From the NCBI RefSeq assembly GCF_041248615.1, contig NZ_CP158426.1: a stretch of DNA of 64,000 nucleotides; one strand, 5' to 3'. Position numbers and translations under genes: made by a program. This DNA is from Escherichia coli (GTDB lineage Bacteria; Pseudomonadota; Gammaproteobacteria; Enterobacterales; Enterobacteriaceae). This document shows positions 3,127-43,121 of the stretch, piece by piece. The notes below the pieces were generated by a model. The model ran no database searches, was not told the origin of the DNA, and saw only the letters and a list, made by a program, of their open reading frames with translations. The stretch's first letter is position 1; the number at the start of each line of letters is the position of its first letter.

Positions 3127-4320
3127 TTACTTGCTTTTGCAGCAGCGCCAGATAAATACAGTCACCATGCTAAATAATACAGCGGCAAATAATGCCATCA
3201 CAATCAGTGCTATTGCGACACCTGTTTTCGACACCAATGGTACCAACAACGCGCAAAGCCCATAGCCAAGTGTGTGACTGCAAGCGAGCCAGCCCGCGCC
3301 TGCGCCGTCGGCCAGCTTATCATTCAGTAAAAGTTGATAAGCGGGGGTTGCCAGAGCAGCTCCAAATGACAGCACTGCACAGCCTAGGTAAAACAACCAT
3401 AGCTGTTCAGCGAGCATGATAGCCAGACCACTACTCATCAACACCCCGGCACTCAGGAGCAGAGCCACTGGAGTCAGGCGCTGTGGACGGAGTACCACGA
3501 ACTGCGCGATAAGCGCAGCTATTGCGGACAGCCCCAACAACCACGCTACCTGTTGGCTAATAGTGGTGGTATCAGTGGCGAACTGGCGAGTAAGGGCTGG
3601 AGAAAGTCCAAGCTGCATCATGCTCATTGCCGCAGCCAGTAACATTGCGCAAAGCAGATAAGGCAGGAAATCCCGCTTCAGGCTGACGCTCTTGCGCTCC
3701 GGTGTGGGCTGTGGTGGTGTGCCGGGCAACCGCAGAAGCATCACCAGTGCCAGCGCTGGCGCTGCCATCAGCATCCACACTGGCGCCAGAGGGTGAATGA
3801 CCAACATTGCCGCCGCGCACAGCGGCCCGAATAGCCTGCCGCAGCTCAGGCCGGAGCTGATGGTTGCCAGAGCGGCCATGCGATTCCCATCTCCCGCTCT
3901 CTGCAATGCCCAGACCTGACAGGCTGGCACCATTGCTGACACGGTCAGACCGTAGACGATCCGGGCGATGATTAATATTCCCAACCCCACCGCTTTTGTT
4001 ACGGCACCGGTAGCCATCAGCACGCTTCCCAGCCCAAGCAGGGTAAAGCTTACGCCATATCCTCCCAGAGCCCACAGCACCACAGTCTTACTGCCAGTAA
4101 GGGAAATTTGCTTTCCCCACCATGGGGAAGATGGCAGAAACAGCATTGAGCCCAGCATCAGCAGGGCAGCCCATACAGACAGACTCAGATTTGTCTGTAT
4201 GACCAGAACAGGGAGTACAACCAGCAGACCGTTCTGTCCGATACCGAGAAGACCGGCACTGAACGCCAGTGGCCAGCAGGACAGGGTTTTTTGGGGCGTA
4301 TCTTCGATCTTAGATGACAT
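3127..4320 (-). CDS. shiF: MFS transporter ShiF-like, divergent from iucA
   Basis: 397-aa polytopic membrane ORF immediately upstream of and divergent from iucA. Confidence 0.8.
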   Translation of the reverse strand: MSSKIEDTPQKTLSCWPLAFSAGLLGIGQNGLLVVLPVLVIQTNLSLSVWAALLMLGSMLFLPSSPWWGKQISLTGSKTVVLWALGGYGVSFTLLGLGSVLMATGAVTKAVGLGILIIARIVYGLTVSAMVPACQVWALQRAGDGNRMAALATISSGLSCGRLFGPLCAAAMLVIHPLAPVWMLMAAPALALVMLLRLPGTPPQPTPERKSVSLKRDFLPYLLCAMLLAAAMSMMQLGLSPALTRQFATDTTTISQQVAWLLGLSAIAALIAQFVVLRPQRLTPVALLLSAGVLMSSGLAIMLAEQLWLFYLGCAVLSFGAALATPAYQLLLNDKLADGAGAGWLACSHTLGYGLCALLVPLVSKTGVAIALIVMALFAAVLFSMVTVFIWRCCKSK

Positions 4321-4455: not shown

Positions 4456-6180
4456 ATGATCCTGCCCTCTGAAAAATCCGCCACAGATGTGGCTGCGCAG
4501 TGCTTCCTGAATGCCTTGATTCGTGAAACCAAAGACTGGCAACTGGCGGAATACCCGCCAGACGAATTGATTATCCCGCTGGACGAACAGAAGTCGCTCC
4601 ATTTCAGAGTGGCTTATTTCTCCCCAACCCAGCATCACCGCTTTGCATTTCCTGCTCATCTGGTCACGGCATCAGGCAGTTATCCTGTCGATTTTACCAC
4701 TCTCTCCCGGCTTATTATTGACAAGCTCCGGCATCAACTTTTTCTGCCAGTTCCCCTCTGCGAAACTTTCCACCAACGCGTGCTGGAAAGCTACGCCCAT
4801 ACGCAACAGACAATTGATGCCCGCCATGACTGGGCCATCCTGCGTGAGAAAGCGTTGAATTTTGGCGAGGCTGAGCAGGCACTGCTGACAGGACACGCTT
4901 TCCACCCTGCACCTAAGTCTCATGAACCGTTTAACCGCCAGGAAGCTGAACGATACCTGCCTGACATGGCACCTCACTTCCCGCTGCGGTGGTTTTCGGT
5001 GGATAAAACGCAAATCGCTGGTGAAAGTCTGCATCTTAACCTTCAACAGCGGTTGACGCGATTTGCCGCAGAAAATGCGCCCCAGTTACTCAACGAATTA
5101 AGTGACAATCAATGGCTGTTCCCGCTGCACCCGTGGCAGGGAGAATATCTTTTGCAGCAGGTGTGGTGCCAGGCACTTTTTGCTAAAGGACTTATCAGAG
5201 ACTTAGGCGAGGCCGGCACGTCGTGGCTGCCGACCACCTCTTCCCGCTCCCTCTACTGTGCTACCAGCCGCGATATGATCAAGTTCTCCCTGAGCGTTCG
5301 GCTGACCAACTCCGTCCGTACTCTGTCTGTGAAAGAGGTGGAGCGAGGAATGCGCCTGGCACGTCTGGCGCAAACCGACGGCTGGCAGATGCTACAGGCC
5401 CGCTTCCCTACTTTCCGGGTAATGCAGGAGGACGGCTGGGCCGGGCTGCGCGATCTTAACGGCAACATCATGCAGGAAAGTTTGTTTTCCCTGCGTGAAA
5501 ACCTGCTGCTGGAGCAGCCGCAAAGCCAGACCAACGTTCTGGTTTCCCTGACTCAGGCCGCACCGGATGGCGGTGATTCGCTGCTGGTTTCGGCGGTAAA
5601 ACGCCTGAGCGATCGCCTCGGTATCACTGTGCAACAGGCCGCCCACGCATGGGTCGATGCTTACTGTCAGCAGGTGCTGAAGCCTCTGTTTACGGCTGAA
5701 GCGGATTACGGCCTGGTGCTGCTGGCGCATCAGCAAAATATTCTTGTGCAGATGCTTGGGGATCTGCCGGTCGGATTTATTTACCGTGACTGCCAGGGCA
5801 GCGCGTTTATGCCTCACGCGACAGAGTGGCTCGATACCATTGACGAGGCGCAGGCGGAAAATATTTTCACCCGTGAGCAGTTGCTGCGCTATTTCCCTTA
5901 TTACCTGCTGGTTAACTCCACTTTTGCCGTAACTGCTGCGCTGGGTGCTGCCGGGCTGGACAGCGAAGCGAATCTGATGGCTCGTGTACGAACATTGCTG
6001 GCTGAAGTGCGTGACCAGGTGACTCATAAAACCTGTCTCAACTATGTTCTGGAAAGTCCGTACTGGAACGTAAAAGGTAACTTTTTCTGTTATCTGAACG
6101 ATCATAACGAGAACACCATCGTTGACCCTTCGGTGATCTATTTTGATTTCGCTAACCCGCTGCAGGCTCAGGAGGTCTGA
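4456..6180 (+). CDS. iucA: Aerobactin synthetase IucA (NIS synthetase)
   Basis: ORF start taken at MILPSEK (4456) with AGGAG RBS; operon order iucABCD-iutA. Confidence 0.93.
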   Translation: MILPSEKSATDVAAQCFLNALIRETKDWQLAEYPPDELIIPLDEQKSLHFRVAYFSPTQHHRFAFPAHLVTASGSYPVDFTTLSRLIIDKLRHQLFLPVPLCETFHQRVLESYAHTQQTIDARHDWAILREKALNFGEAEQALLTGHAFHPAPKSHEPFNRQEAERYLPDMAPHFPLRWFSVDKTQIAGESLHLNLQQRLTRFAAENAPQLLNELSDNQWLFPLHPWQGEYLLQQVWCQALFAKGLIRDLGEAGTSWLPTTSSRSLYCATSRDMIKFSLSVRLTNSVRTLSVKEVERGMRLARLAQTDGWQMLQARFPTFRVMQEDGWAGLRDLNGNIMQESLFSLRENLLLEQPQSQTNVLVSLTQAAPDGGDSLLVSAVKRLSDRLGITVQQAAHAWVDAYCQQVLKPLFTAEADYGLVLLAHQQNILVQMLGDLPVGFIYRDCQGSAFMPHATEWLDTIDEAQAENIFTREQLLRYFPYYLLVNSTFAVTAALGAAGLDSEANLMARVRTLLAEVRDQVTHKTCLNYVLESPYWNVKGNFFCYLNDHNENTIVDPSVIYFDFANPLQAQEV

Positions 6181-7128
6181 ATGTCTGGGGCAAACATTGT
6201 TCACAGCGGATATGGACTGCGCTGTGAAAAACTCGACAAGCCTCTGAATCTTGGCTGGGGGCTGGACAATAGCGCGGTGTTGCACTGGCCCGGGGAGCTG
6301 CCAACAGGATGGCTGTGCGACGCGCTGGATCAGATATTTATCGCCGCACCACAACTTTCAGCAGTGGTTCTTCCCTGGTCCGAATGGTGTGAGGAGCCAC
6401 AGGCGCTGACGCTTTTCGGACAGGTACAAAGCGACATTATCCATCGTTCCGCTTTCTGGCAGTTACCGTTATGGCTGAGTTCTCCGGCAAACCGGGCCTC
6501 CGGTGAAATGGTTTTTGATGCAGAGCGTGAGATTTATTTCCCGCAGCGCCCCCCCCGTCCGCAGGGTGAAGTTTATCGTCGTTACGATCCACGCATTCGC
6601 AGGATGCTGAGTTTCCGCATTGCCGATCCCGTTTCTGATGCAGAACGTTTCACTCGCTGGATGAACGATCCGCGCGTTGAGTATTTCTGGGAGCAAAGTG
6701 GCTCACTGGAGGTACAGATCGCCTATCTGGAACGCCAGCTCACCAGTAAACATGCATTCCCGCTGATTGGTTGTTTCGACGATCGGCCGTTCAGTTATTT
6801 CGAAATCTACTGGGCGGCGGAAGACCGCATTGGTCGCCACTATTCGTGGCAGCCCTTTGACCGTGGCCTGCATCTGCTGGTTGGTGAACAGCAATGGCGC
6901 GGAGCCCACTATGTGCAAAGCTGGCTGCGCGGGGTGACACATTACCTGCTGCTGAATGAGCCACGTACGCAGCGCACAGTACTGGAGCCACGCACCGATA
7001 ACCAGCGCCTGTTCCGCCATCTTGAGCCTGCGGGATACCGGACAATTAAAGAGTTCGACTTCCCACATAAACGCTCGCGCATGGTGATGGCGGATCGTCA
7101 TCACTTCTTCACGGAGGTCGGTCTGTAA
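6181..7128 (+). CDS. iucB: N6-hydroxylysine O-acetyltransferase IucB
   Basis: 315-aa ORF abutting iucA stop; operon context. Confidence 0.92.
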   Translation: MSGANIVHSGYGLRCEKLDKPLNLGWGLDNSAVLHWPGELPTGWLCDALDQIFIAAPQLSAVVLPWSEWCEEPQALTLFGQVQSDIIHRSAFWQLPLWLSSPANRASGEMVFDAEREIYFPQRPPRPQGEVYRRYDPRIRRMLSFRIADPVSDAERFTRWMNDPRVEYFWEQSGSLEVQIAYLERQLTSKHAFPLIGCFDDRPFSYFEIYWAAEDRIGRHYSWQPFDRGLHLLVGEQQWRGAHYVQSWLRGVTHYLLLNEPRTQRTVLEPRTDNQRLFRHLEPAGYRTIKEFDFPHKRSRMVMADRHHFFTEVGL

Positions 7129-8870
7129 TGAATCACAAAGACTGGGATTTGGTCAACCGCCGCTTGGTGGCAAAAATGTTGTCTGAGCTGGAGTATGAGC
7201 AGGTTTTCCACGCGGAATCTCAGGGCGATGACCGCTACTGCATTAACCTGCCGGGAGCACAATGGCGCTTCATCGCTGAACGTGGTATCTGGGGCTGGCT
7301 CTGGATTGATGCTCAAACTCTGCGCTGCGCGGACGAGCCAGTACTGGCTCAGACGCTGCTGATGCAGCTAAAGCAGGTACTGTCAATGAGCGATGCAACC
7401 GTTGCTGAGCATATGCAGGATTTGTATTCCACGCTGCTGGGCGACCTGCAACTGCTGAAAGCCCGTCGCGGGCTGAGCGCCAGTGACCTGATTAATCTTA
7501 GTGCCGACCGCCTGCAATGCCTGCTGAGCGGTCATCCTAAATTCGTTTTTAATAAAGGTCGCCGTGGCTGGGGTAAAGAGGCGCTGGAACGATATGCGCC
7601 AGAGTATGCCAACACCTTTAGACTGCACTGGCTGGCGGTAAAACGTGAACATATGATCTGGCGCTGTGATAACGAGATGGATATTCATCAGTTGTTGACG
7701 GCCGCAATGGATCCGCAGGAGTTTGCCCGCTTCAGTCAGGTCTGGCAGGAAAACGGACTGGATCATAACTGGCTGCCGCTGCCTGTACATCCGTGGCAGT
7801 GGCAGCAAAAAATCGCCACCGACTTCATCGCTGATTTTGCCGAAGGCAGGATGGTGTCTCTCGGCGAGTTTGGCGACCAGTGGCTCGCCCAGCAGTCGCT
7901 GCGTACCCTGACCAACGCCAGTCGCCGGGGTGGGCTGGATATCAAGCTGCCGCTGACCATCTACAACACCTCATGCTACCGGGGGATTCCTGGCAGATAC
8001 ATCGCTGCCGGACCACTGGCTTCACGCTGGCTACAACAGGTTTTTGCGACCGACGCTACCCTGGTGCAAAGCGGTGCAGTGATCCTTGGTGAACCGGCTG
8101 CAGGCTATGTCTCCCATGAAGGCTATGCCGCGCTTGCCCGGGCTCCCTATCGCTACCAGGAAATGCTTGGTGTTATCTGGCGGGAGAATCCGTGCCGCTG
8201 GCTGAAACCGGATGAAAGTCCGGTTCTGATGGCAACACTGATGGAGTGCGACGAAAACGATCAGCCGCTGGCAGGCGCATATATAGACCGCTCCGGGCTG
8301 GACGCTGAAACCTGGCTTACGCAACTGTTCCGGGTGGTCGTGGTTCCTCTGTATCACCTGCTTTGCCGCTACGGTGTCGCGCTTATTGCACATGGACAAA
8401 ATATAACGCTCGCCATGAAAAAGGGGGTTCCACAGCGTGTTCTGCTGAAAGACTTCCAGGGCGATATGCGGCTGGTGAAAGAAGAGTTCCCCGAAATGGA
8501 CTCTTTGCCTCAGGAGGTTCGTGATGTTACATCCCGCCTGAGTGCGGACTACTTAATCCATGATTTGCAGACGGGTCACTTCGTGACAGTACTGCGTTTT
8601 ATTTCGCCACTGATGGTTCGTCTTGGCGTACCTGAACGGCGATTTTATCAACTGCTGGCAGCAGTGTTGAGTGATTACATGAAAAAACATCCACAAATGT
8701 CAGAGCGTTTTGCGCTTTTCTCACTTTTCAGGCCACAAATCATTCGCGTGGTGCTGAACCCGGTAAAACTGACCTGGCCTGATCTGGATGGCGGCAGCCG
8801 CATGCTGCCGAATTACCTTGAGGATCTGCAAAATCCGCTGTGGCTGGTAACTCAGGAATATGAATCATGA
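7128..8870 (+). CDS. iucC: Aerobactin synthetase IucC (NIS synthetase)
   Basis: 580-aa ORF overlapping iucB stop; paralogous to IucA. Confidence 0.93.
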   Translation: MNHKDWDLVNRRLVAKMLSELEYEQVFHAESQGDDRYCINLPGAQWRFIAERGIWGWLWIDAQTLRCADEPVLAQTLLMQLKQVLSMSDATVAEHMQDLYSTLLGDLQLLKARRGLSASDLINLSADRLQCLLSGHPKFVFNKGRRGWGKEALERYAPEYANTFRLHWLAVKREHMIWRCDNEMDIHQLLTAAMDPQEFARFSQVWQENGLDHNWLPLPVHPWQWQQKIATDFIADFAEGRMVSLGEFGDQWLAQQSLRTLTNASRRGGLDIKLPLTIYNTSCYRGIPGRYIAAGPLASRWLQQVFATDATLVQSGAVILGEPAAGYVSHEGYAALARAPYRYQEMLGVIWRENPCRWLKPDESPVLMATLMECDENDQPLAGAYIDRSGLDAETWLTQLFRVVVVPLYHLLCRYGVALIAHGQNITLAMKKGVPQRVLLKDFQGDMRLVKEEFPEMDSLPQEVRDVTSRLSADYLIHDLQTGHFVTVLRFISPLMVRLGVPERRFYQLLAAVLSDYMKKHPQMSERFALFSLFRPQIIRVVLNPVKLTWPDLDGGSRMLPNYLEDLQNPLWLVTQEYES

Positions 8871-10144
8871 AAAAAAGTGTCGATTTTATTGGTGTAGGGA
8901 CAGGGCCATTTAATCTCAGCATTGCTGCGTTGTCACATCAGATCGAAGAACTGGACTGTCTCTTCTTTGATGAACATCCTCATTTTTCCTGGCATCCGGG
9001 TATGCTGGTACCGGATTGTCATATGCAGACCGTCTTTCTGAAAGATCTGGTCAGTGCTGTTGCACCTACAAATCCCTACAGCTTTGTTAACTATCTGGTG
9101 AAGCACAAAAAGTTCTATCGCTTCCTTACAAGCAGACTACGTACAGTATCCCGTGAAGAGTTTTCTGACTACCTCCGCTGGGCTGCTGAAGATATGAATA
9201 ACCTGTATTTCAGTCATACCGTTGAAAACATTGATTTCGATAAAAAACGTCGATTGTTTCTGGTGCAAACCAGCCGGGGAGAATATTTTGCCCACAATAT
9301 CTGCCTTGGTACAGGAAAACAACCTTATTTACCACCCTGTGTGAAGCATATGACACAATCCTGTTTCCATGCCAGTGAAATGAATCTTCGTCGGCCGGAC
9401 CTTAGTGAAAAACGGGTAACCGTGGTTGGTGGAGGACAGAGTGGTGCAGACCTGTTCCTTAATGCATTACGCGGGGAATGGGGAGAAGCGGCGGAAATAA
9501 ACTGGATCTCCCGGCGGAATAATTTTAACGCACTGGATGAGGCTGCTTTTGCTGATGAGTATTTTACACCTGAATATATTTCAGGCTTCTCCGGACTGGA
9601 GGAAGATATTCGCCATCAGTTACTGGATGAGCAGAAAATGACATCGGATGGCATCACTGCCGATTCTTTACTGACCATTTATCGTGAGTTGTACCACCGT
9701 TTTGAAGTTCTGAGAAAACCAAGAAATATCCGTCTGCTACCCAGCCGCTCGGTAACAACTCTGGAAAGTAGTGGTCCTGGCTGGAAGTTGCTGATGGAGC
9801 ATCATCTGGATCAGGGCAGGGAGAGCCTGGAAAGTGATGTGGTGATTTTCGCCACAGGTTACCGTTCTGCGTTGCCACAAATACTTCCCTCACTGATGCC
9901 GCTGATCACCATGCACGATAAGAACACCTTTAAAGTGCGTGATGACTTCACTCTGGAATGGAGTGGCCCGAAAGAGAACAACATCTTCGTGGTCAACGCC
10001 AGTATGCAAACCCATGGCATCGCCGAACCTCAGCTCAGCCTGATGGCATGGAGATCTGCACGTATTCTTAATCGTGTAATGGGACGTGATTTATTCGATC
10101 TCAGTATGCCGCCCGCCCTGATTCAGTGGCGCAGCGGCACCTAG
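8867..10144 (+). CDS. iucD: L-lysine N6-monooxygenase IucD
   Basis: 425-aa ORF with N-terminal FAD-binding GVGTGP motif; overlaps iucC stop. Confidence 0.92.
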   Translation: MKKSVDFIGVGTGPFNLSIAALSHQIEELDCLFFDEHPHFSWHPGMLVPDCHMQTVFLKDLVSAVAPTNPYSFVNYLVKHKKFYRFLTSRLRTVSREEFSDYLRWAAEDMNNLYFSHTVENIDFDKKRRLFLVQTSRGEYFAHNICLGTGKQPYLPPCVKHMTQSCFHASEMNLRRPDLSEKRVTVVGGGQSGADLFLNALRGEWGEAAEINWISRRNNFNALDEAAFADEYFTPEYISGFSGLEEDIRHQLLDEQKMTSDGITADSLLTIYRELYHRFEVLRKPRNIRLLPSRSVTTLESSGPGWKLLMEHHLDQGRESLESDVVIFATGYRSALPQILPSLMPLITMHDKNTFKVRDDFTLEWSGPKENNIFVVNASMQTHGIAEPQLSLMAWRSARILNRVMGRDLFDLSMPPALIQWRSGT

Positions 10145-10225
10145 GGAAAACGCAGCCGGAGGCTGCTTCTTTAACTCGCTACACAGCATCTTTGGGCTGA
10201 TTTTTTCCGCCCGTGTGGAGGAATA

Positions 10226-23171: not shown

Positions 23172-23696
23172 ATGAAACGTAAACTTATTGCCTTTGTGAT
23201 TCTGGCTACATCATCCTGTGGATATGCAGCCACCAAAGATGTAACAATGAATCTTGTTGATAGTGACGGAAAAGAGCGAAATATTGGTAAAATAACCATC
23301 CAGAAGACACCCTACGGGCTGCTGTTCACCCCTGATCTTCACTCCTTACCCGCCGGCATTCATGGTTTTCATGTACATGAAAACGCAAGTTGTGCTCCTG
23401 CCCTGAAAGATGGAAAAACTGTCGCTGCTTTATCTGCAGGTGGTCACTTTGACCCGGAAAAAACAGGGAAGCATCTCGGTCCATGGTCTCCTGATGGCCA
23501 CCTAGGTGATCTCCCTGCGCTTTATGTCACTCATGACGGAAAAGCAACCTACCCGGTGCTTGCGCCAAGACTATCTGAATTAAAGGAGCTCGATGGCCGT
23601 TCGCTAATGCTCCACGCAGGAGGTGATAATCATGATGACCATCCTGAACCTCTAGGTGGCGGTGGTGCAAGAATTGCCTGTGGTATCATCCCATAA
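23172..23696 (+). CDS. sodC: Periplasmic Cu,Zn superoxide dismutase
   Basis: Signal peptide; Cu/Zn-SOD motifs GFHVHE and [12 protein letters not shown]; GAGG RBS. Confidence 0.85.
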
Positions 23697-25726: not shown

Positions 25727-28700
25727 CTAAGCGAGATTATGGTTTTCAAATTGTTCCGGGCTGAGACCGCCACAGGCACTGTGACGACGCCAGCGATTGT
25801 AATCACACTCGATATAATTAAACACCGTTGCCCGCATTATTTCCCGGCTGCTAAAGCGTTCCCCGTGGATACATTCCACCTTCAGCGAATGAAAGAAGCT
25901 TTCCACACAGGCATTGTCATAACAGTAGCCTTTCGCACTCATACTGCCACGCAGGTTGTGTCGCTTCAGCAGCGCCTGATAATCCCCTGAACAGTATTGA
26001 CCACCACGGTCCGTATGAGCAATGACGCTTTCCGGGCGTCTTCTCCGCCACAACGCCATTTGCCGTGCATCACAGGCCAGTTGTGCTGTCATTCGCGGTG
26101 ACATCGACCAGCCAATGACGGCGCGTGACCACAGGTCGATGACTACTGTGAGATACAACCAGCCCTCATCGGTACGCAGTAGAGTAAGAGGCAGGGCGTA
26201 GTCGGACTATTTCCCTGCCTCTCCTCCCCGAACCGGACATGCACCTTTCAGCGCATCCGGCTCTCCATTTAAACGCTGGCGAACGCCATTGCCACTTCTG
26301 TAAAGCGCGATGTATACGTCTTTCTGGTTTCCGTCCTCAGATAGGGATTACCTTCGGGTAGCCGCCAGCGGAACAGCTTCTTGCCTTGCCCCACCAACCG
26401 GTACAGTATTTCGCCGCTGAGCTTGCCGTGATTGGTTTTACCAAATAAAACCCACGTTTTGCTCTGACCCGGTTTCGGTGATTTACACCACCACCTCATC
26501 AGGGAAGCGATACTTGTACGGTATTTGCGGGCCAGCCAGTGAGCCAGCTTCTAGAACACGACACGGTCGATATAACTGAAGACTTTGGCCTTAAAATCAA
26601 CGAACTGATAGAACATGGCCCAGCCTTTCAGTTTTCGGTTGAGTTGTTCAGCCATATCGACTTTGCTTTCACTGTAGTTGCCTGATAACAGTGCTGTCAG
26701 CGATGCGGCGAAGTTTCTGGCTTTCTCCAGCGGGATCGTTGAGACCACTTGCATCTCGCCATAACGACTGCGTTTGCGAATGATCCTGTGCCCCAGAAAG
26801 ATAAAGCCGTCATTAACATGGGTGATTTTAGTCTTATCCATGTTCAGCCTGAGTTTCAGACTGCCTTCGAGCACACCCCGACACTCCTCCCTGATGGCTT
26901 CCGCCTGTGCTTTGGTGCCTTTGACGATGAGGACAAAATCATCGGCATAGCGGCAGTACGCCACCGCGGGTTTCCACTGCCAGTTTTCTCTGACCGCCGT
27001 ACTTCGGCCCCGTTGGATACTGTTATTCCAGTACCACCGATCTTTTCTTGCTTTCCCGCTCAGGTAGCGCTCATGCAGGTATTGATCGAACTCATTCAGC
27101 ATGATGTTCGACAATAGCGGCGATATAACACCGCCCTGTGGCACACCTTCACTGGCCGCCCGAAAGAGACCGACATCGATATGTCCCGCCTTGATGGTTT
27201 TCCACAGCAGAGTCATGAAACGTGCGTCACTGATCCTGCGGCGTACAGCCTTCATCAGCAGTCGATGATGTACGGTGTCGAAGTAACTGGACAGGTCGCC
27301 TTCAATCACCCAGCGTCCCCGGGTTTCACCGCAGTCGGTGAGCTGTAATTTCACCGTGCGGATCGAGTGGTGGACACTGCGCTCAGGCCGGAAGCCATAT
27401 GAGAGCGTATGAAAATCACTCTCCCATATCGGCTCCATCGCCATCAGCATGGCCCGCTGAACAATACGATCCCGCAACGCGGGGATACCCAGTGGTCGCA
27501 GTTTGCCATTGCTTTTAGGGATGTAAACCCGCCTGGCGGGCAAGGGCTGGTAGTGGCCTGAGAGTAATTCATCCCTGAGGATTTGCAGCTCAACAGCCAG
27601 TCTGGCCTGTAGCATTGTTTTGTTCACGCCATCAACACCGGGGGTATTCGCCCCCTTTGATGAAAGCGTGATCCGCGCCGCTTCAGCCAGCCATTCTGGT
27701 TGTGTTATCAGACGCAGCAGCCGTTGAATCCGTAGGGACGGATCGGTGGCTGCCCATGTGGCAAGCTTGCGTTGCATTTCGCTGATTATCAAAGGTCTTC
27801 ACCTCGTTAGGTCAGTTAATTTACGTCGCAGACACATTCAAACTGCTTCCCTTCGCCATGTAATGGGCTTTCCCCATCGCGGACTACTACGGAAGCTCCG
27901 CCAGCCAGCGCGTCATCGGAGCCATGCCCCCTTAACATCCGTCGCTGACCTTCCCCGGTTTGCCTGACTGGACTCAGACATACTGAGGAGGCTGCCCGTC
28001 GCACTCTTTATCCTTGCTTGCCGCAAGTTGGCAGAAGTCAGCAACGCGAGCGTGATAGACGCTGCTGCCCCGGAGTTTCGCATACATGTCAAAACACCTT
28101 CGACCGGCAGTGCTTACGTATCACTGCCAGTTCCTCCTGCACGGCCTGTCAGATCACGTAGGCCGTGGTGACGTTTTCAACCCACAGAGGCGGATTAACG
28201 GGTTCATATTCTTAAGCCTTTCAGTACTTAACCTTGAGGATCATCTCGGCTTAGTGATCTCGCCTCAATCCCCGTTGTCAGCGGGTTACATCACCCTGCG
28301 GGCATGCCGCAGGTCACTGCCGCTCAGGTTCTCCACCGTCACACCCGGTGGGATTGTTGGGTTTCTCATCGTGAGTTACCGGTTCAATATTCCAGACAGA
28401 CTCGTGGTTCATTTGAGCGTCTATGCTCGCCCTGAACTCCGGGCACACAGTACGTGATGTCACCCACCCACTTCTGGTTCGGGCCGCTGGCGCTGAAGTC
28501 CTGCTCCAGCAGATTCTCCAATACGGGCAGGCCATGTGCACGGTAGCTGGCCGGGCTGAACTTCCGGCTGGCTTTCGCCCGCAGCCCCTGACGACGCAGG
28601 CTGGCGGCAATGGTTTTAATATTGAACTCCGGCAGTTCGTCAGCAAGGCGGGGAGCACCGTATCGCTGCTTTGCCTCAAAGAATGCCTTATGGACAGCGG

Positions 28701-30903: not shown

Positions 30904-32130
30904 ATGTCAGGAACTATACGAAAGATAATAAAAGAGGATGATGTATTTCATTCTTCTATTCGCCGTATTGAATGGTTGTTTGAAACATTCTCTTCTGTCT
31001 GTTTGTCTTTTTCCGGAGGAAAAGACTCCACTGTGCTGCTCCATCTTGCGGCTGATGTGGCTCGCAGGAAGAAACGTCGTTTCTCTGTATTATTCATTGA
31101 CTGGGAAGCTCAGTATCAGTGCACCATTGAACATGTTCAGAAGATGCGGGAAATGTACCGGGATGTGACGGATACCTTTTACTGGGTGGCACTCCCCCTG
31201 ACTACGGTAAACGGTGTCTCTCAGTTTCAGCCGGAATGGATATGCTGGGAACCAGGTGTGGAGTGGGTTCGTCAGCCACCAGATGACGCTATTACAGATA
31301 TGTCGTATTTCCCATTTTATCGGTATGCCATGACGTTTGAAGAATTTGTTCCGGCATTTTCTTCCTGGTTTGCCGGTAACCGGTGTGGAGTGGCAATACT
31401 GACTGGTGTTCGTGCTGATGAATCGCTCAATCGCTTTATGGGACTGGTGTCTCAGCGCAAACTGAGATATGCAGATGATAAACCCTGGACCACAGCGTCA
31501 CCTGAAGGGTTTTATTACACCTTGTATCCGTTGTATGACTGGAAAGCCCGTGATATATGGATATATAACGCCAGAACCCGGGCTATCTACAATCCCCTGT
31601 ATGACCTGATGTACCGTGCCGGCGTGCCGTTACGCAACATGCGGGTCTGTGAGCCTTTTGGCCCGGAACAGCGTAAGGGACTGTGGCTTTACCATGTTCT
31701 GGAGCCGGAAACCTGGGCCAGGATGTGTGAGCGGGTGTCGGGTGCTGCCAGCGGGGCGCTTTATGCCAATGAGAGCGGTGCCTATTTTGCCCTGCGTAAG
31801 CGTATCACGAAGCCACCTCATCATACCTGGCGTAGCTATGCGATGTTCCTGCTGGATGTGATGCCGGAAAGAACGGCAGAACATTACCGTAATAAAATTG
31901 CTGTCTACCTGCGCTGGTATCAGACGCGGGGCTTCCCGGATGACATCCCGGATGAACAGGAGAATGACCTGGGGAGCCGGGATATCCCGTCCTGGCGACG
32001 TATCTGTAAGACACTCATAAAGAATGATTTCTGGTGTCGGACCCTCTCCTTCAGTCCGAACAAACCCCGGCACTATGAACGTTATCTGCAGCGTATGAAA
32101 GAAAGGAGGAAGGAATGGGGGATTCTGTGA
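30904..32130 (+). CDS. ibrA: PAPS-reductase-like PP-loop ATP pyrophosphatase, IbrA/DndC-like
   Basis: PP-loop motif SGGKDS near N-terminus; 408 aa; AT-rich promoter tract upstream; coupled to the next ORF. Confidence 0.7.
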   Translation: MSGTIRKIIKEDDVFHSSIRRIEWLFETFSSVCLSFSGGKDSTVLLHLAADVARRKKRRFSVLFIDWEAQYQCTIEHVQKMREMYRDVTDTFYWVALPLTTVNGVSQFQPEWICWEPGVEWVRQPPDDAITDMSYFPFYRYAMTFEEFVPAFSSWFAGNRCGVAILTGVRADESLNRFMGLVSQRKLRYADDKPWTTASPEGFYYTLYPLYDWKARDIWIYNARTRAIYNPLYDLMYRAGVPLRNMRVCEPFGPEQRKGLWLYHVLEPETWARMCERVSGAASGALYANESGAYFALRKRITKPPHHTWRSYAMFLLDVMPERTAEHYRNKIAVYLRWYQTRGFPDDIPDEQENDLGSRDIPSWRRICKTLIKNDFWCRTLSFSPNKPRHYERYLQRMKERRKEWGIL

Positions 32131-32759
32131 CACCTGAGGTGGAAGTATTGAGCAACATGATTCGACAGTACTTCAGTCAGGAACGATCTGAAGAAGAGAC
32201 CATACGAGCCCTTAATCATCTGCGCAGGGTGTTGCATGAGGTCAGCCCTTTTGCACAGGAGCCTGTGGATTGTGTGTTGTGGGTGAAAGCGGATGAGGTG
32301 GTGGCCAACGATTACAATCCCAATGTCATGTCTTCCAGTGAAAAAAAACTGCTTAAACATTCACTGGAGCAGGATGGATTCACGCAGCCTGTGGTGGTTT
32401 CGGAAGAGAAGGAGCATTATCTGGTCGTGGATGGTTTTCATCGTCAGTTGCTGGGCAGGAAAGCGGATACGAGAAAACGTCTGAAGGGCTGGCTGCCAGT
32501 GGCCTGTATTAATCCAGAGAGAAAGGGACAGGCATCACGTATTGCCGCAACCATACGGCATAACCGTGCCAGGGGAAAACACCAGGTAACGTCAATGTCT
32601 GACATTGTCAGGGACCTCTCACGTCTGGGCTGGACAGATGAGCGTATTGGCACAGAGTTGGGCATGGACCAGGATGAAGTGCTGAGGCTGAAACAGATTA
32701 GCGGGCTGACAGAGCTGTTTCAGGAAGAGGATTTCAGCCCTGCATGGACGGTTCGTTAA
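32115..32759 (+). CDS. ibrB: ParB/Srx-fold DGQHR-like protein, IbrB/DndB-like
   Basis: DGFHR motif (VVVDGFHRQLLG); start overlaps ibrA stop by 16 nt with AGGAGGAAGG RBS. Confidence 0.7.
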   Translation: MGDSVTPEVEVLSNMIRQYFSQERSEEETIRALNHLRRVLHEVSPFAQEPVDCVLWVKADEVVANDYNPNVMSSSEKKLLKHSLEQDGFTQPVVVSEEKEHYLVVDGFHRQLLGRKADTRKRLKGWLPVACINPERKGQASRIAATIRHNRARGKHQVTSMSDIVRDLSRLGWTDERIGTELGMDQDEVLRLKQISGLTELFQEEDFSPAWTVR

Positions 32760-40082: not shown

Positions 40083-40286
<204 letters not shown>

Positions 40287-40939
40287 TGAACTGAATTTAC
40301 TTTGAAAAAATGTAAAAACATTTAAATCATAGCCAGAAGCCGCGATTATTCAGTGCTTCTCATTTTATATTTTCTGCAAATTTATATGTGGTATAAAATA
40401 ACACCCTTGTCATTCAGGTATAAAATATCATCATCGTACAGTAAAGGATATATAAATATAAAATTATACTATTCAAAATATGGTGCATTCTTATTCATGA
40501 TAGGAATACTTAGAACATCATTTTTTCATTGTAGACCATGATTTCGGATTTGAAAAGTTCCTTCCCCAGTAATCTCTAGTTTTTATTCTCAATTCAACCC
40601 AACTCTTCCCTATACAAACTAAAAAACATTGTTCTATTGATAGATACTTCTCAGTAATCAGATAAAAAACTATAATATTGCTGTGCATGATGTACATATT
40701 TAAAATGTCATGAGTACATCCCTTTTATTTGAAAAACAAACTAAAAGAAATCACTTAAATAAAATGTTTTTATATCGTGGTATTTAAGAAAACTTATATC
40801 AAAAAATAAGATATTGACCTTTATTTAAAATTAGATTAGATTGCAAAGATAAGAATACGTGTGATTATTTCTTTAAACACCTGTAAAAATTTATTAGAGC
40901 ATAGTTATATTATTGAACATTGTATTGCTTAGGTAAGGT

Positions 40940-42199
40940 ATGCTGGTATCTAACTATAATTATGTAATCAGCCGTCGTCGTTTACTGCAAGGTGCGGGCG
41001 CCATGTGGCTATTGAGCGTAAGTCAGGTCAGCCTGGCTGCGGTCAGCCAGGTCGTGGCGGTACGCGTCTGGCCTGCGTCCAGCTACACCCGCGTGACGGT
41101 AGAATCAAATCGTCAGCTGCAATATAAGCAGTTCGCGTTAAGTAACCCTGAACGTGTGGTGGTGGATATCGAAGATGTAAACCTGAACTCGGTACTCAAG
41201 GGGATGGCGGCACAAATTCGTGCAGACGACCCGTTCATCAAGTCGGCGCGCGTCGGGCAATTTGACCCGCAAACCGTACGCATGGTTTTTGAATTAAAGC
41301 AAAACGTAAAACCGCAGCTGTTTGCCCTTGCGCCGGTCGCCGGGTTTAAAGAGCGTCTGGTGATGGACCTCTATCCGGCCAATGCACAGAATATGCAGGA
41401 CCCGCTGCTGGCGCTGCTGGAGGATTACAACAAAGGCGACCTCGAAAAGCAGGTGCCGCCAGCACAAAGTGGTCCACAACCGGGTAAAGCAGGGCGTGAT
41501 CGTCCGATTGTCATTATGCTTGACCCCGGCCACGGTGGCGAAGACCCCGGTGCGGTGGGGAAATACAAAACACGCGAAAAAGACGTGGTATTGCAAATAG
41601 CTCGCCGTCTGCGCTCTCTGATCGAAAAAGAGGGTAATATGAAGGTGTACATGACGCGCAATGAAGACATCTTCATTCCGTTGCAAGTGCGTGTAGCAAA
41701 AGCACAGAAACAACGTGCTGACCTTTTTGTTTCTATCCATGCTGATGCCTTTACCAGTCGCCAGCCGAGCGGTTCTTCCGTGTTTGCGCTTTCGACCAAA
41801 GGCGCGACAAGTACTGCGGCAAAATATCTGGCACAAACCCAGAACGCCTCGGACTTGATTGGCGGCGTGAGCAAAAGCGGTGACCGCTATGTCGACCACA
41901 CCATGTTCGATATGGTGCAGTCTCTGACCATTGCCGACAGCCTGAAGTTGGGTAAAGCGGTGCTGAATAAGCTCGGTAAAATCAACAAGCTGCATAAAAA
42001 TCAGGTTGAACAGGCCGGGTTTGCCGTGCTGAAAGCACCTGATATTCCCTCCATTCTGGTCGAAACGGCGTTTATCAGTAACGTTGAGGAAGAGCGCAAA
42101 CTGAAAACGGCAAGATTCCAACAACAAGTGGCAGAATCTATCCTAGAGGGAATTAAAGAGTATTTTTCGGATATAGACGCGTTAGCGAGAAAAGCATAA
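40940..42199 (+). CDS. amiC: N-acetylmuramoyl-L-alanine amidase AmiC-like with Tat signal; first ~10 codons AT-rich
   Basis: Twin-arginine motif [11 protein letters not shown]; amidase_3 region ([11 protein letters not shown]...); abrupt GC shift after codon ~10. Confidence 0.8.
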
Positions 42200-42419
42200 T
42201 TTAAAAATGTTTAATATTCTATGTTCTCGGTCATATTTTATTAATTTGGATGAATATATGCTGTTAGTGCTGTATTCTCCGTTTGGATACACCTTTACCT
42301 TAGCGATATAGTTGTGTTATTCATATATAAATATGCCCCGTTTTAATTCCATGCATTTTTATATCTTGGTCAAATAATGGTGTCGTCGATATTCTTCCAG
42401 CGTCTTATTGTTCAGTGAT

Positions 42420-42910
42420 TCATGTGTGCGTTCATAGCTATATTCTGATAACCATTTCTCCGTAATTTCTAGAACTTCATTCAGCGTTCTGAACAGATAA
42501 AAATCGAGTATTTCTGTACGGTGTGTCCTGTTAAAACGCCCAATAAAAGCGTTCTACGTCAGCTTACCCGGCTGGATAAACTCCCGTTTTACTGCGTGTA
42601 TATCAGCCCATTCAGCCAGCGTTAGAGAGATAAATTCCGAACCATTATCTATGCGCAGCATGACCGGATAACTGCGATTTGCCGCGAACCTGCTGCCTCA
42701 GAACCTGAAAAAGTTTTGAAAAACCGTATCGAGGATATCGCTCGTCCACTGCCTGCACCACCACAATAACGGGGTCGTACCACGTGGTATCCGGACGGTA
42801 ATGGGAAACCGTTCTGCTCTGGTTCAGACTCCGGCAGGCCTGATGGACACTGAGTCCAAATGTCGTTATCTGATGAGTAACAAGCTCACGCTTACAGGCT
42901 GGTTTTAAAG
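42420..42910 (-). pseudogene. IS3-family orfB C-terminal remnant
   Basis: ...PVMLRIDNGSEFISLTLAEWADIHAVKREFIQPGKLT... with stops. Confidence 0.5.
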
Positions 42911-43121
42911 CTTTTTTCGATAATGTCTTTCAATGCCGGTTCTCTAGGCTAAGGTCGGCAAGCATCTGTTTTGGACGTCGGTTCTCGTCCTCAAGATCCT
43001 CGTTCTTTTTAATATCAGGTGACTCTATGCATCGTATCTGGGCTTCCAGTTCATGGAATGGAGTACCCCCTCCTTTTGCGGTTAACTGTACGAAATGCAC
43101 TCACTCAGCAGGGGAATCACA

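Follow-up and report, generated by a model that had tools for sequence, protein, structure and literature searches.

Here we show that a genomic island in Escherichia coli carries a second copy of amiC, paralogous to the native copy. With a probability of about 60%, this gene is a mosaic in which an Escherichia core was placed in frame within a distant, AT-rich amiC locus through past homologous exchange. The gene is complete, occupies positions 40940–42199 on the plus strand of the analyzed stretch of DNA (64,000 nucleotides; the window, hereafter), and consists of nine non-native codons, an Escherichia-type core with a divergent patch inside it, and an AT-rich, strongly diverged 3' end. The breakpoints at the 5' switch, at 42112 and around the patch are all supported, which is the pattern that defines a recombinant gene.

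The open reading frame encodes a protein of 419 aa with a Tat signal, an AMIN domain (PF11741; 76.5 bits, residues 40–144) and an Amidase_3 domain (PF01520; 176.4 bits). The product scores 793 bits with the NCBIfam model NF038267 (amidase_AmiC), against a curated cut-off of 700, and falls under the cut-offs of the AmiA and AmiB models. Compared with the structure of E. coli AmiC (PDB 4BIN; E=3.9e-240), only a handful of changes are found outside the last 29 residues, and the AMIN domain differs by one substitution, K61Q. Residues H198, E213, H267, D269 and E375 are invariant in the amiC alignment and identical to 4BIN; their counterparts in 4BIN numbering are H196, E211, H265, D267 and E373, which we take to be the zinc ligands and the catalytic glutamate. 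Residues 285–330 are also identical to 4BIN, including Q301, the equivalent of E. coli Q299, presumably the glutamine of the inhibitory helix. The S-R-R-R-L-L motif, the hydrophobic region and the SLA/A cleavage site are the same as in native AmiC, so that the Tat signal, with its A-x-A site, is retained in sequence, as originally predicted. Overall, the protein resembles the chromosomal AmiC in domain order, in length (419 versus 417 aa) and in the core, where four amino acids are changed. RefSeq already gives the island gene the name amiC.

By sequence the island gene is an AmiC gene, whereas by position it is not the ortholog of the native one. The native synteny, argA - amiC - tRNA-Met - mltA, is seen in K-12, M11957 and SMS-3-5. 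Unlike the native gene, the island copy is not located between argA and tRNA-Met/mltA, but within an aerobactin/sit/iha island, flanked by AT-rich DNA and IS fragments; tblastn finds no ArgA upstream. The surrounding island, which is associated with iron uptake and virulence, includes iucABCD-iutA, sitABCD, sodC, ibrAB-like genes and iha, together with what is left of an integrative conjugative element. The window is 100% identical to the chromosome of E. coli NRZ14408 (NZ_LT599825.1) across the 2.3 kb that were compared. Together with its flanks, the gene is present at 99% identity or higher in 57 of 5,426 complete E. coli genomes (~1%), always on the chromosome. A search for another amiC elsewhere in the genome, suggested along with the original prediction, gave a uniform answer: the native, argA-linked copy is kept in all 57 carriers, each of which therefore has amiC in two places. 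In SMS-3-5, the native gene lies at 3,036,388–3,037,641, between argA and a sugar-utilisation cluster, the tRNA-Met genes and mltA; the island gene is found ~190 kb from it, at 3,227,446–3,228,705 on the same strand. All eight island copies examined carry an intact ORF and have the same IS-bounded surroundings. An exact match to the protein allele of SMS-3-5 is indexed in 644 public-assembly blocks; the 10 for which the context was listed are alike and share the IS21/IS110-type neighbours. The carrier lineages include many poultry and human clinical isolates.

The gene is embedded in a compact AT-rich unit with IS remnants on both sides, the positions of which were taken from the RefSeq annotation of NRZ14408 (window position equals record position minus 2,403,671). 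The left boundary is a fragment of an IS3-family transposase gene (40092–40235, plus strand), and the right boundary is an IS3-family integrase-core pseudogene (42343–43051, minus strand), which is the same in seven other genomes. Beyond these IS3-family fragments lies debris of IS110, IS21 and IS66. Between the boundaries, base composition changes in steps. The non-coding, presumably foreign promoter tract of 704 bp (40236–40939, plus strand) has a GC content of 27.3%; codons 1–9 have 25.9%; the core (40967–42111), 53.4%; and positions 42200–42343, 29.2%; the window as a whole has 49.6%. These values, together with the AmiC model and the RefSeq annotation, confirm the original description of an amiC-like amidase gene situated among AT-rich tracts and IS debris, with an AT-rich start continuous with the DNA upstream of it and an AT-rich 3' flank. 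The downstream flank proper (42200–42342, plus strand) lacks the tRNA-Met genes of the native locus and has no similarity to the region downstream of native amiC (p=0.95); no tRNA was found near the island copy, and neither Rfam nor tRNA searches of the flanks gave a match. A search for direct or inverted repeats on either side, as would mark a mobile unit, yielded only short, chance-level matches.

In the alignment with K-12 amiC, the switch to native-like sequence occurs exactly at 40966/40967, at the codons ATC AGC CGT (CGT) of I-S-R(-R), in agreement with the abrupt change to GC-rich sequence at the Tat motif that had been predicted. Upstream of this point, the nine codons 40940–40966 (plus strand) encode MLVSNYNYV as the n-region of the signal peptide, in contrast to MSGSNTA in the native protein, and follow a foreign tract of 27% GC. 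The island 5' end and the native 5' region have no significant similarity (Smith-Waterman score of 16 versus 14.6 +/- 2.2 for shuffles, p=0.30), and the same holds for the amiC 5' regions of eight other species. A Shine-Dalgarno-like sequence, TAGGTAAGGT, is located directly 5' of the ATG (40930–40939, plus strand). Homology of the ribosome-binding site and first codons to those of native amiC, with the layout GGGAGAGGC-ATG, looks plausible by eye in a global alignment but is covered by the same non-significant result. Because demonstrable amiC homology is lacking here, the 5' junction could be illegitimate; the 5' end presumably belongs to the amiC frame nonetheless.

The upstream tract itself appears to be confined to this locus. 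In distant-mode blastn searches of the 5,426 E. coli genomes it was detected only in the 57 carriers of the gene, and it was not found on any plasmid in PLSDB; two small ORFs within it had no Pfam match. Ten promoter-like sites were found, compared with 5.8 +/- 2.2 in shuffles of 40200–42450, a count that is uninformative because it is no more than AT-richness predicts. As a candidate relic of the argA-amiC intergenic region, a single 27-nt match to the ARG-box region of K-12 argA was noticed (p ~0.04, uncorrected); with a poor fit to the ARG-box consensus and no trace of ArgA coding sequence by tblastn, this reading is weak and was retained as a lead only.

The original prediction interpreted these features as a chromosomal E. 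coli amiC captured by IS-mediated or otherwise illegitimate rearrangement and equipped with a new start and promoter, the rest being a plain copy. A sharp 5' junction, upstream DNA devoid of detectable native similarity, IS debris on both sides and an E. coli-type core are all compatible with such an event. Part of this account stands: the gene is an extra copy, and its first nine codons and upstream DNA are non-native. Collinearity with a canonical amiC does not extend over the full length and native upstream sequence; it is interrupted at both the 5' and the 3' ends. The IS fragments start 704 bp before and 144 bp after the coding sequence rather than at the junctions, which counts against such capture; in addition, the core is not the allele of the resident host and the 3' end is non-native, as described below.

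The core (40967–42111, plus strand; 1,145 bp) extends from the RRR motif through the catalytic domain to ...EEERKLKTA. It is most similar to E. coli proper, with E. whittamii, E. albertii, Citrobacter and Salmonella progressively farther; identity to E. coli alleles is 97–99% over the first 580 nt and 91–98% over the rest. Over 381 codons, 42 synonymous and four non-synonymous differences separate the core from K-12 (pS 0.156, pN 0.005). Relative to three native E. coli alleles, which differ from one another at 31–36 sites, the core has 40–52 differences (3.5–4.5%), and no part of it exactly matches a sampled native allele. Gene conversion continuing between the two copies was considered and rejected: in SMS-3-5, the island core has 51 differences from the native amiC of the same genome, versus 40–46 from other E. 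coli alleles. There is thus no sign of ongoing conversion, as the core is no closer to the allele of its own host than to others. The same observation counts against simple capture of the resident gene.

Within the core, a patch of 120 nt (41692–41812, plus strand) differs from E. coli at 15 of 40 third codon positions (scan statistic, p <= 1/5000); the rate of third-position differences is 0.37 inside the patch versus 0.08 outside. This stretch is not a hotspot of variation between E. coli and other Escherichia species. A donor for the patch was sought among the native alleles of the 5,426 genomes, where the best identity over 41640–41880 was 94.2%; the patch, absent from all of these alleles, is a further feature that speaks against simple capture.

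At the 3' end, the native-like sequence stops as abruptly as it begins. The junction lies at ~42098–42112, with the maximum chi-square breakpoint at 42112 (chi2 105–119; reached in none of 500 permutations), and some 15 nt suffice for pS to increase from 0.16 to 0.72. The tail that follows (42112–42199, plus strand), comprising the last 29 codons and the stop, keeps the reading frame and terminates at the stop position of native amiC. It is identical to K-12 at 60 of 88 nt (68%; binomial p=2e-13), and its Smith-Waterman score against native amiC is 50, versus 12.9 +/- 2.0 for shuffles. At the protein level, 19 of the 29 residues are identical to K-12 and 10 differ. Synonymous sites are saturated (pS 0.72), and pN is 0.185, compared with 0.039 for the same codons between K-12 and Klebsiella, a value about five times lower. 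The tail is 55–73% identical to 83 enterobacterial amiC genes, without preference for Escherichia, whereas the median pairwise identity among the enterobacterial species themselves over this region is 80%; its GC content is 39% (37.5% for the last 88 nt of the coding sequence), versus a minimum of 49% among 80 species. The tail is, then, homologous to amiC, yet more diverged than in any comparison within the Enterobacteriaceae. The AT-rich, non-native character of these last ~88 nt of the coding sequence had been missed in the original prediction.

Capture of the chromosomal gene leaves this second junction unexplained, with a tail that is in frame, homologous, synonymously saturated and terminated at the native stop position. 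With the 3' end replaced as well as the 5' end, simple capture of a host gene is an improbable origin. A scenario free of recombination can also be envisaged, in which the whole gene came from a single, unsampled Escherichia-like donor and its ends, lying next to AT-rich DNA, later diverged in situ through AT-biased mutation and relaxed constraint. In keeping with such a process, 19 of the 29 core sites at which the island gene differs from all three native alleles are GC to AT changes, compared with nine AT to GC changes, an excess that by itself falls short of significance (p=0.09). The n-region naturally differs from genus to genus: over its first 27 nt, K-12 amiC shares 62–100% identity with other species. 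E. fergusonii, E. marmotae and E. ruysiae, which were not among the amiC loci retrieved, leave room for such a donor. However, gradual divergence does not account for the abruptness of the steps, for saturation of the tail at synonymous sites rather than at amino acids only, or for such decay in a region that is otherwise well conserved in Enterobacteriaceae. We consider this scenario very unlikely.

The pattern is better explained by exchange with a pre-existing, divergent amiC locus than by illegitimate capture. The flanks, the 5' codons and the tail form one IS-bounded compositional frame in which the core is the outlier, and in the amiC alignment both junctions adjoin the two best-conserved stretches of the family, one of which is the Tat motif; these features favour homologous exchange. 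It is at such sites that diverged homologues would be expected to cross over. Under the mosaic reading, one parent would be an Escherichia amiC and the other an AT-rich, distantly related amiC locus on the island. The Escherichia core would have entered the AT-rich locus by gene conversion or a homologous double crossover, leaving as its frame the upstream tract with nine codons on the 5' side and the 29-codon tail with the flank on the 3' side. From the sequence pattern we infer recombination as the mechanism behind the mosaic; the exchange would have been old and single rather than ongoing, and would have preceded the spread of the island through the carrier lineages.

The AT-rich parent gene was searched for in several databases. 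It was not found among the 5,426 E. coli genomes (blastn, distant mode) or the PLSDB plasmids, and the 80 best amiC relatives kept after scanning the GTDB species-representative genomes included no island-type copy. In JGI metagenomes, a degenerate pattern built on the tail peptide matched two contigs, both with the same E. coli island allele. With the 40-aa tail as query, a word-indexed protein search matched nothing but a fragment of the protein itself, and HMMER, run over all 1.84 billion representatives, gave 13 hits, fragments or chimeric representatives whose tails were of the ordinary enterobacterial type, an uninformative outcome. The failure to find this parent weakens the mosaic reading, as do the absence of a donor for the core and its patch from the sampled alleles and the non-significant similarity of the 5' end.

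AmiC of E. coli is exported through the Tat pathway, targeted to the septum by the AMIN domain, and autoinhibited until relieved by NlpD. The island product is altered in its signal-peptide n-region and at 10 of the final 29 positions. Judging from the conservation of the rest, this product should act as an ordinary AmiC, with Tat export, septal targeting through AMIN, and an inhibitory helix relieved by NlpD; export and activity are both predicted on these grounds. The putative source of transcription must be the AT-rich, apparently foreign upstream tract. DNA of this type is usually silenced by H-NS, and silencing of the upstream tract would be a reasonable expectation from its composition (27% versus 49.6% GC).

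Whatever its origin, the gene may be a silent passenger that stayed intact through a recent spread, is barely expressed and adds nothing to AmiA, AmiB and AmiC. Its setting consists mostly of decayed IS elements, and the eight island copies differ at no more than five sites of the 1,260-nt coding sequence, so that intactness could reflect youth. Three of these five polymorphisms are non-synonymous, and substitutions in the coding sequence are not significantly fewer than in the upstream tract (Fisher p=0.22; substitutions only, homopolymer indels set aside), so that purifying selection was not detected among the eight copies. A search of the literature on island-borne or mosaic amiC of E. coli returned nothing. 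Against the passenger account, all eight copies inspected are intact, whereas most neighbouring IS genes contain frameshifts or stops, and the in-frame joins at both ends keep a start codon, a Shine-Dalgarno-like site, the Tat motif and the native stop position. Overall, a silent passenger is a possibility that we regard as rather unlikely. In another reading, the gene would be an island-controlled amidase isoform in which the promoter, signal-peptide n-region and C-terminal helix of a xenologous amiC were kept and the body was overwritten by a host-compatible enzyme; carriers could then induce extra septal or peptidoglycan-releasing amidase activity under host or stress conditions, and their fitness or virulence would change measurably. 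This reading appears highly doubtful.

Mosaic pbp genes and the conversion between tufA and tufB exemplify exchange between diverged bacterial homologues. The island amiC resembles these genes in its sharp, statistically supported breakpoints, which lie beside conserved stretches and separate blocks of very unequal divergence, and in the preserved frame, but differs from them in that only the Escherichia parent type has been identified, that no sign of continuing homogenisation with the resident copy is seen, and that no selective agent is known to drive it. Extra copies of amiC (amiC2) are reported from Xanthomonas campestris, from filamentous cyanobacteria and from multicellular Neisseriaceae (PMC6638016, PMC5591844, PMC9395523). 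As in those cases, a second AmiC-type amidase, there reportedly sometimes horizontally acquired and sometimes specialised, exists beside the housekeeping one. The amiC2 paralogues are reported to be clearly diverged, some with distinct functions, whereas the island protein is nearly identical to the resident one over 91% of its length.

The island amiC is not a new kind of system but an evolutionary curiosity with an unusual history, and the finding is a modest one. For annotation, the sharing of the name amiC by both copies matters, as pan-genome, MLST-like and knockout studies in carrier strains could mix them up. In SMS-3-5, the two copies amount to a 1.1-kb, ~96%-identical direct repeat with ~190 kb between its arms, which could support rearrangements. 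The redundancy of amidases bears on the integrity of the envelope and on tolerance to antibiotics. Should the mosaic reading hold, a housekeeping cell-wall gene has swapped its body with an acquired homologue while the foreign regulatory and terminal sequences were kept, and this would illustrate how islands acquire host-compatible enzymes under foreign control.

The AT-rich tract that directly precedes the island amiC, the second copy of the gene, contains a 27-nt piece, TATTCAAAATATGGTGCATTCTTATTC (window 40470-40497), that aligns locally with the paired ARG boxes lying just upstream of argA in K-12 (p about 0.04, uncorrected). This piece is a weak match to the ARG-box consensus, and no trace of ArgA coding sequence was found to its left. 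The resemblance hints that the AT-rich tract could descend from a divergent argA-amiC intergenic region, and it could also be a chance match in AT-rich DNA.

The native, argA-linked amiC and the island copy are both present in E. coli SMS-3-5, at NC_010498.1 3,036,388-3,037,641 (locus L087, 31389-32642) and 3,227,446-3,228,705 (locus L005, 9653-10912), respectively. About 190 kb separates the two genes, which point the same way and share a core of 1.1 kb with about 96% identity. This core is a potential substrate for homologous recombination, which could result in deletion or duplication. In the same genome, a cluster of five sugar-utilisation genes, encoding PTS EIIC, a PRD regulator, MalY/PatB, a KpsF/GutQ isomerase and a dehydrogenase, has been inserted between the native amiC and the tRNA-Met genes (L087 25902-31131). 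The native loci of K-12 and M11957 lack this cluster; thus, the native amiC locus is itself variable on the 3' side.

The island amiC allele in the window carries A at position 41390 (Asn151), where the native AmiC and all seven other island copies examined have G (Asp). This non-synonymous change, located in the linker that joins the AMIN domain to the catalytic domain, is private to the strain among the island copies examined.

Genes for a YadA-like adhesin and a sigma-factor-like protein lie just upstream of the window (NZ_LT599825.1 2400925-2402989). Within the window, IS remnants surround an intact sitABCD iron/manganese transporter (16340-19810) and the island's sodC, of the periplasmic superoxide dismutase family (23172-23696). 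An ltrA pseudogene, for the reverse transcriptase/maturase of a group II intron, is inserted between IS3 fragments and interrupted by an internal stop (26269-27777). The island also includes an intact ibrAB-type pair, whose products resemble phosphoadenosine-phosphosulfate reductase and IbrB (30904-32759), and intact iha, a siderophore receptor/adhesin gene (50824-52911). After iha come two integrative-conjugative-element genes of the TIGR03757 and TIGR03756 families (53845-55211), both of which carry internal stops. They suggest that a decayed element of this type was incorporated in the island.

The aerobactin operon iucABCD-iutA (window 4456-12427) follows a gene for an MFS transporter (3127-4320), and its iucD (about 8867-10200) is annotated as frameshifted. 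Should this frameshift prove genuine, the strain may have a defect in aerobactin synthesis.
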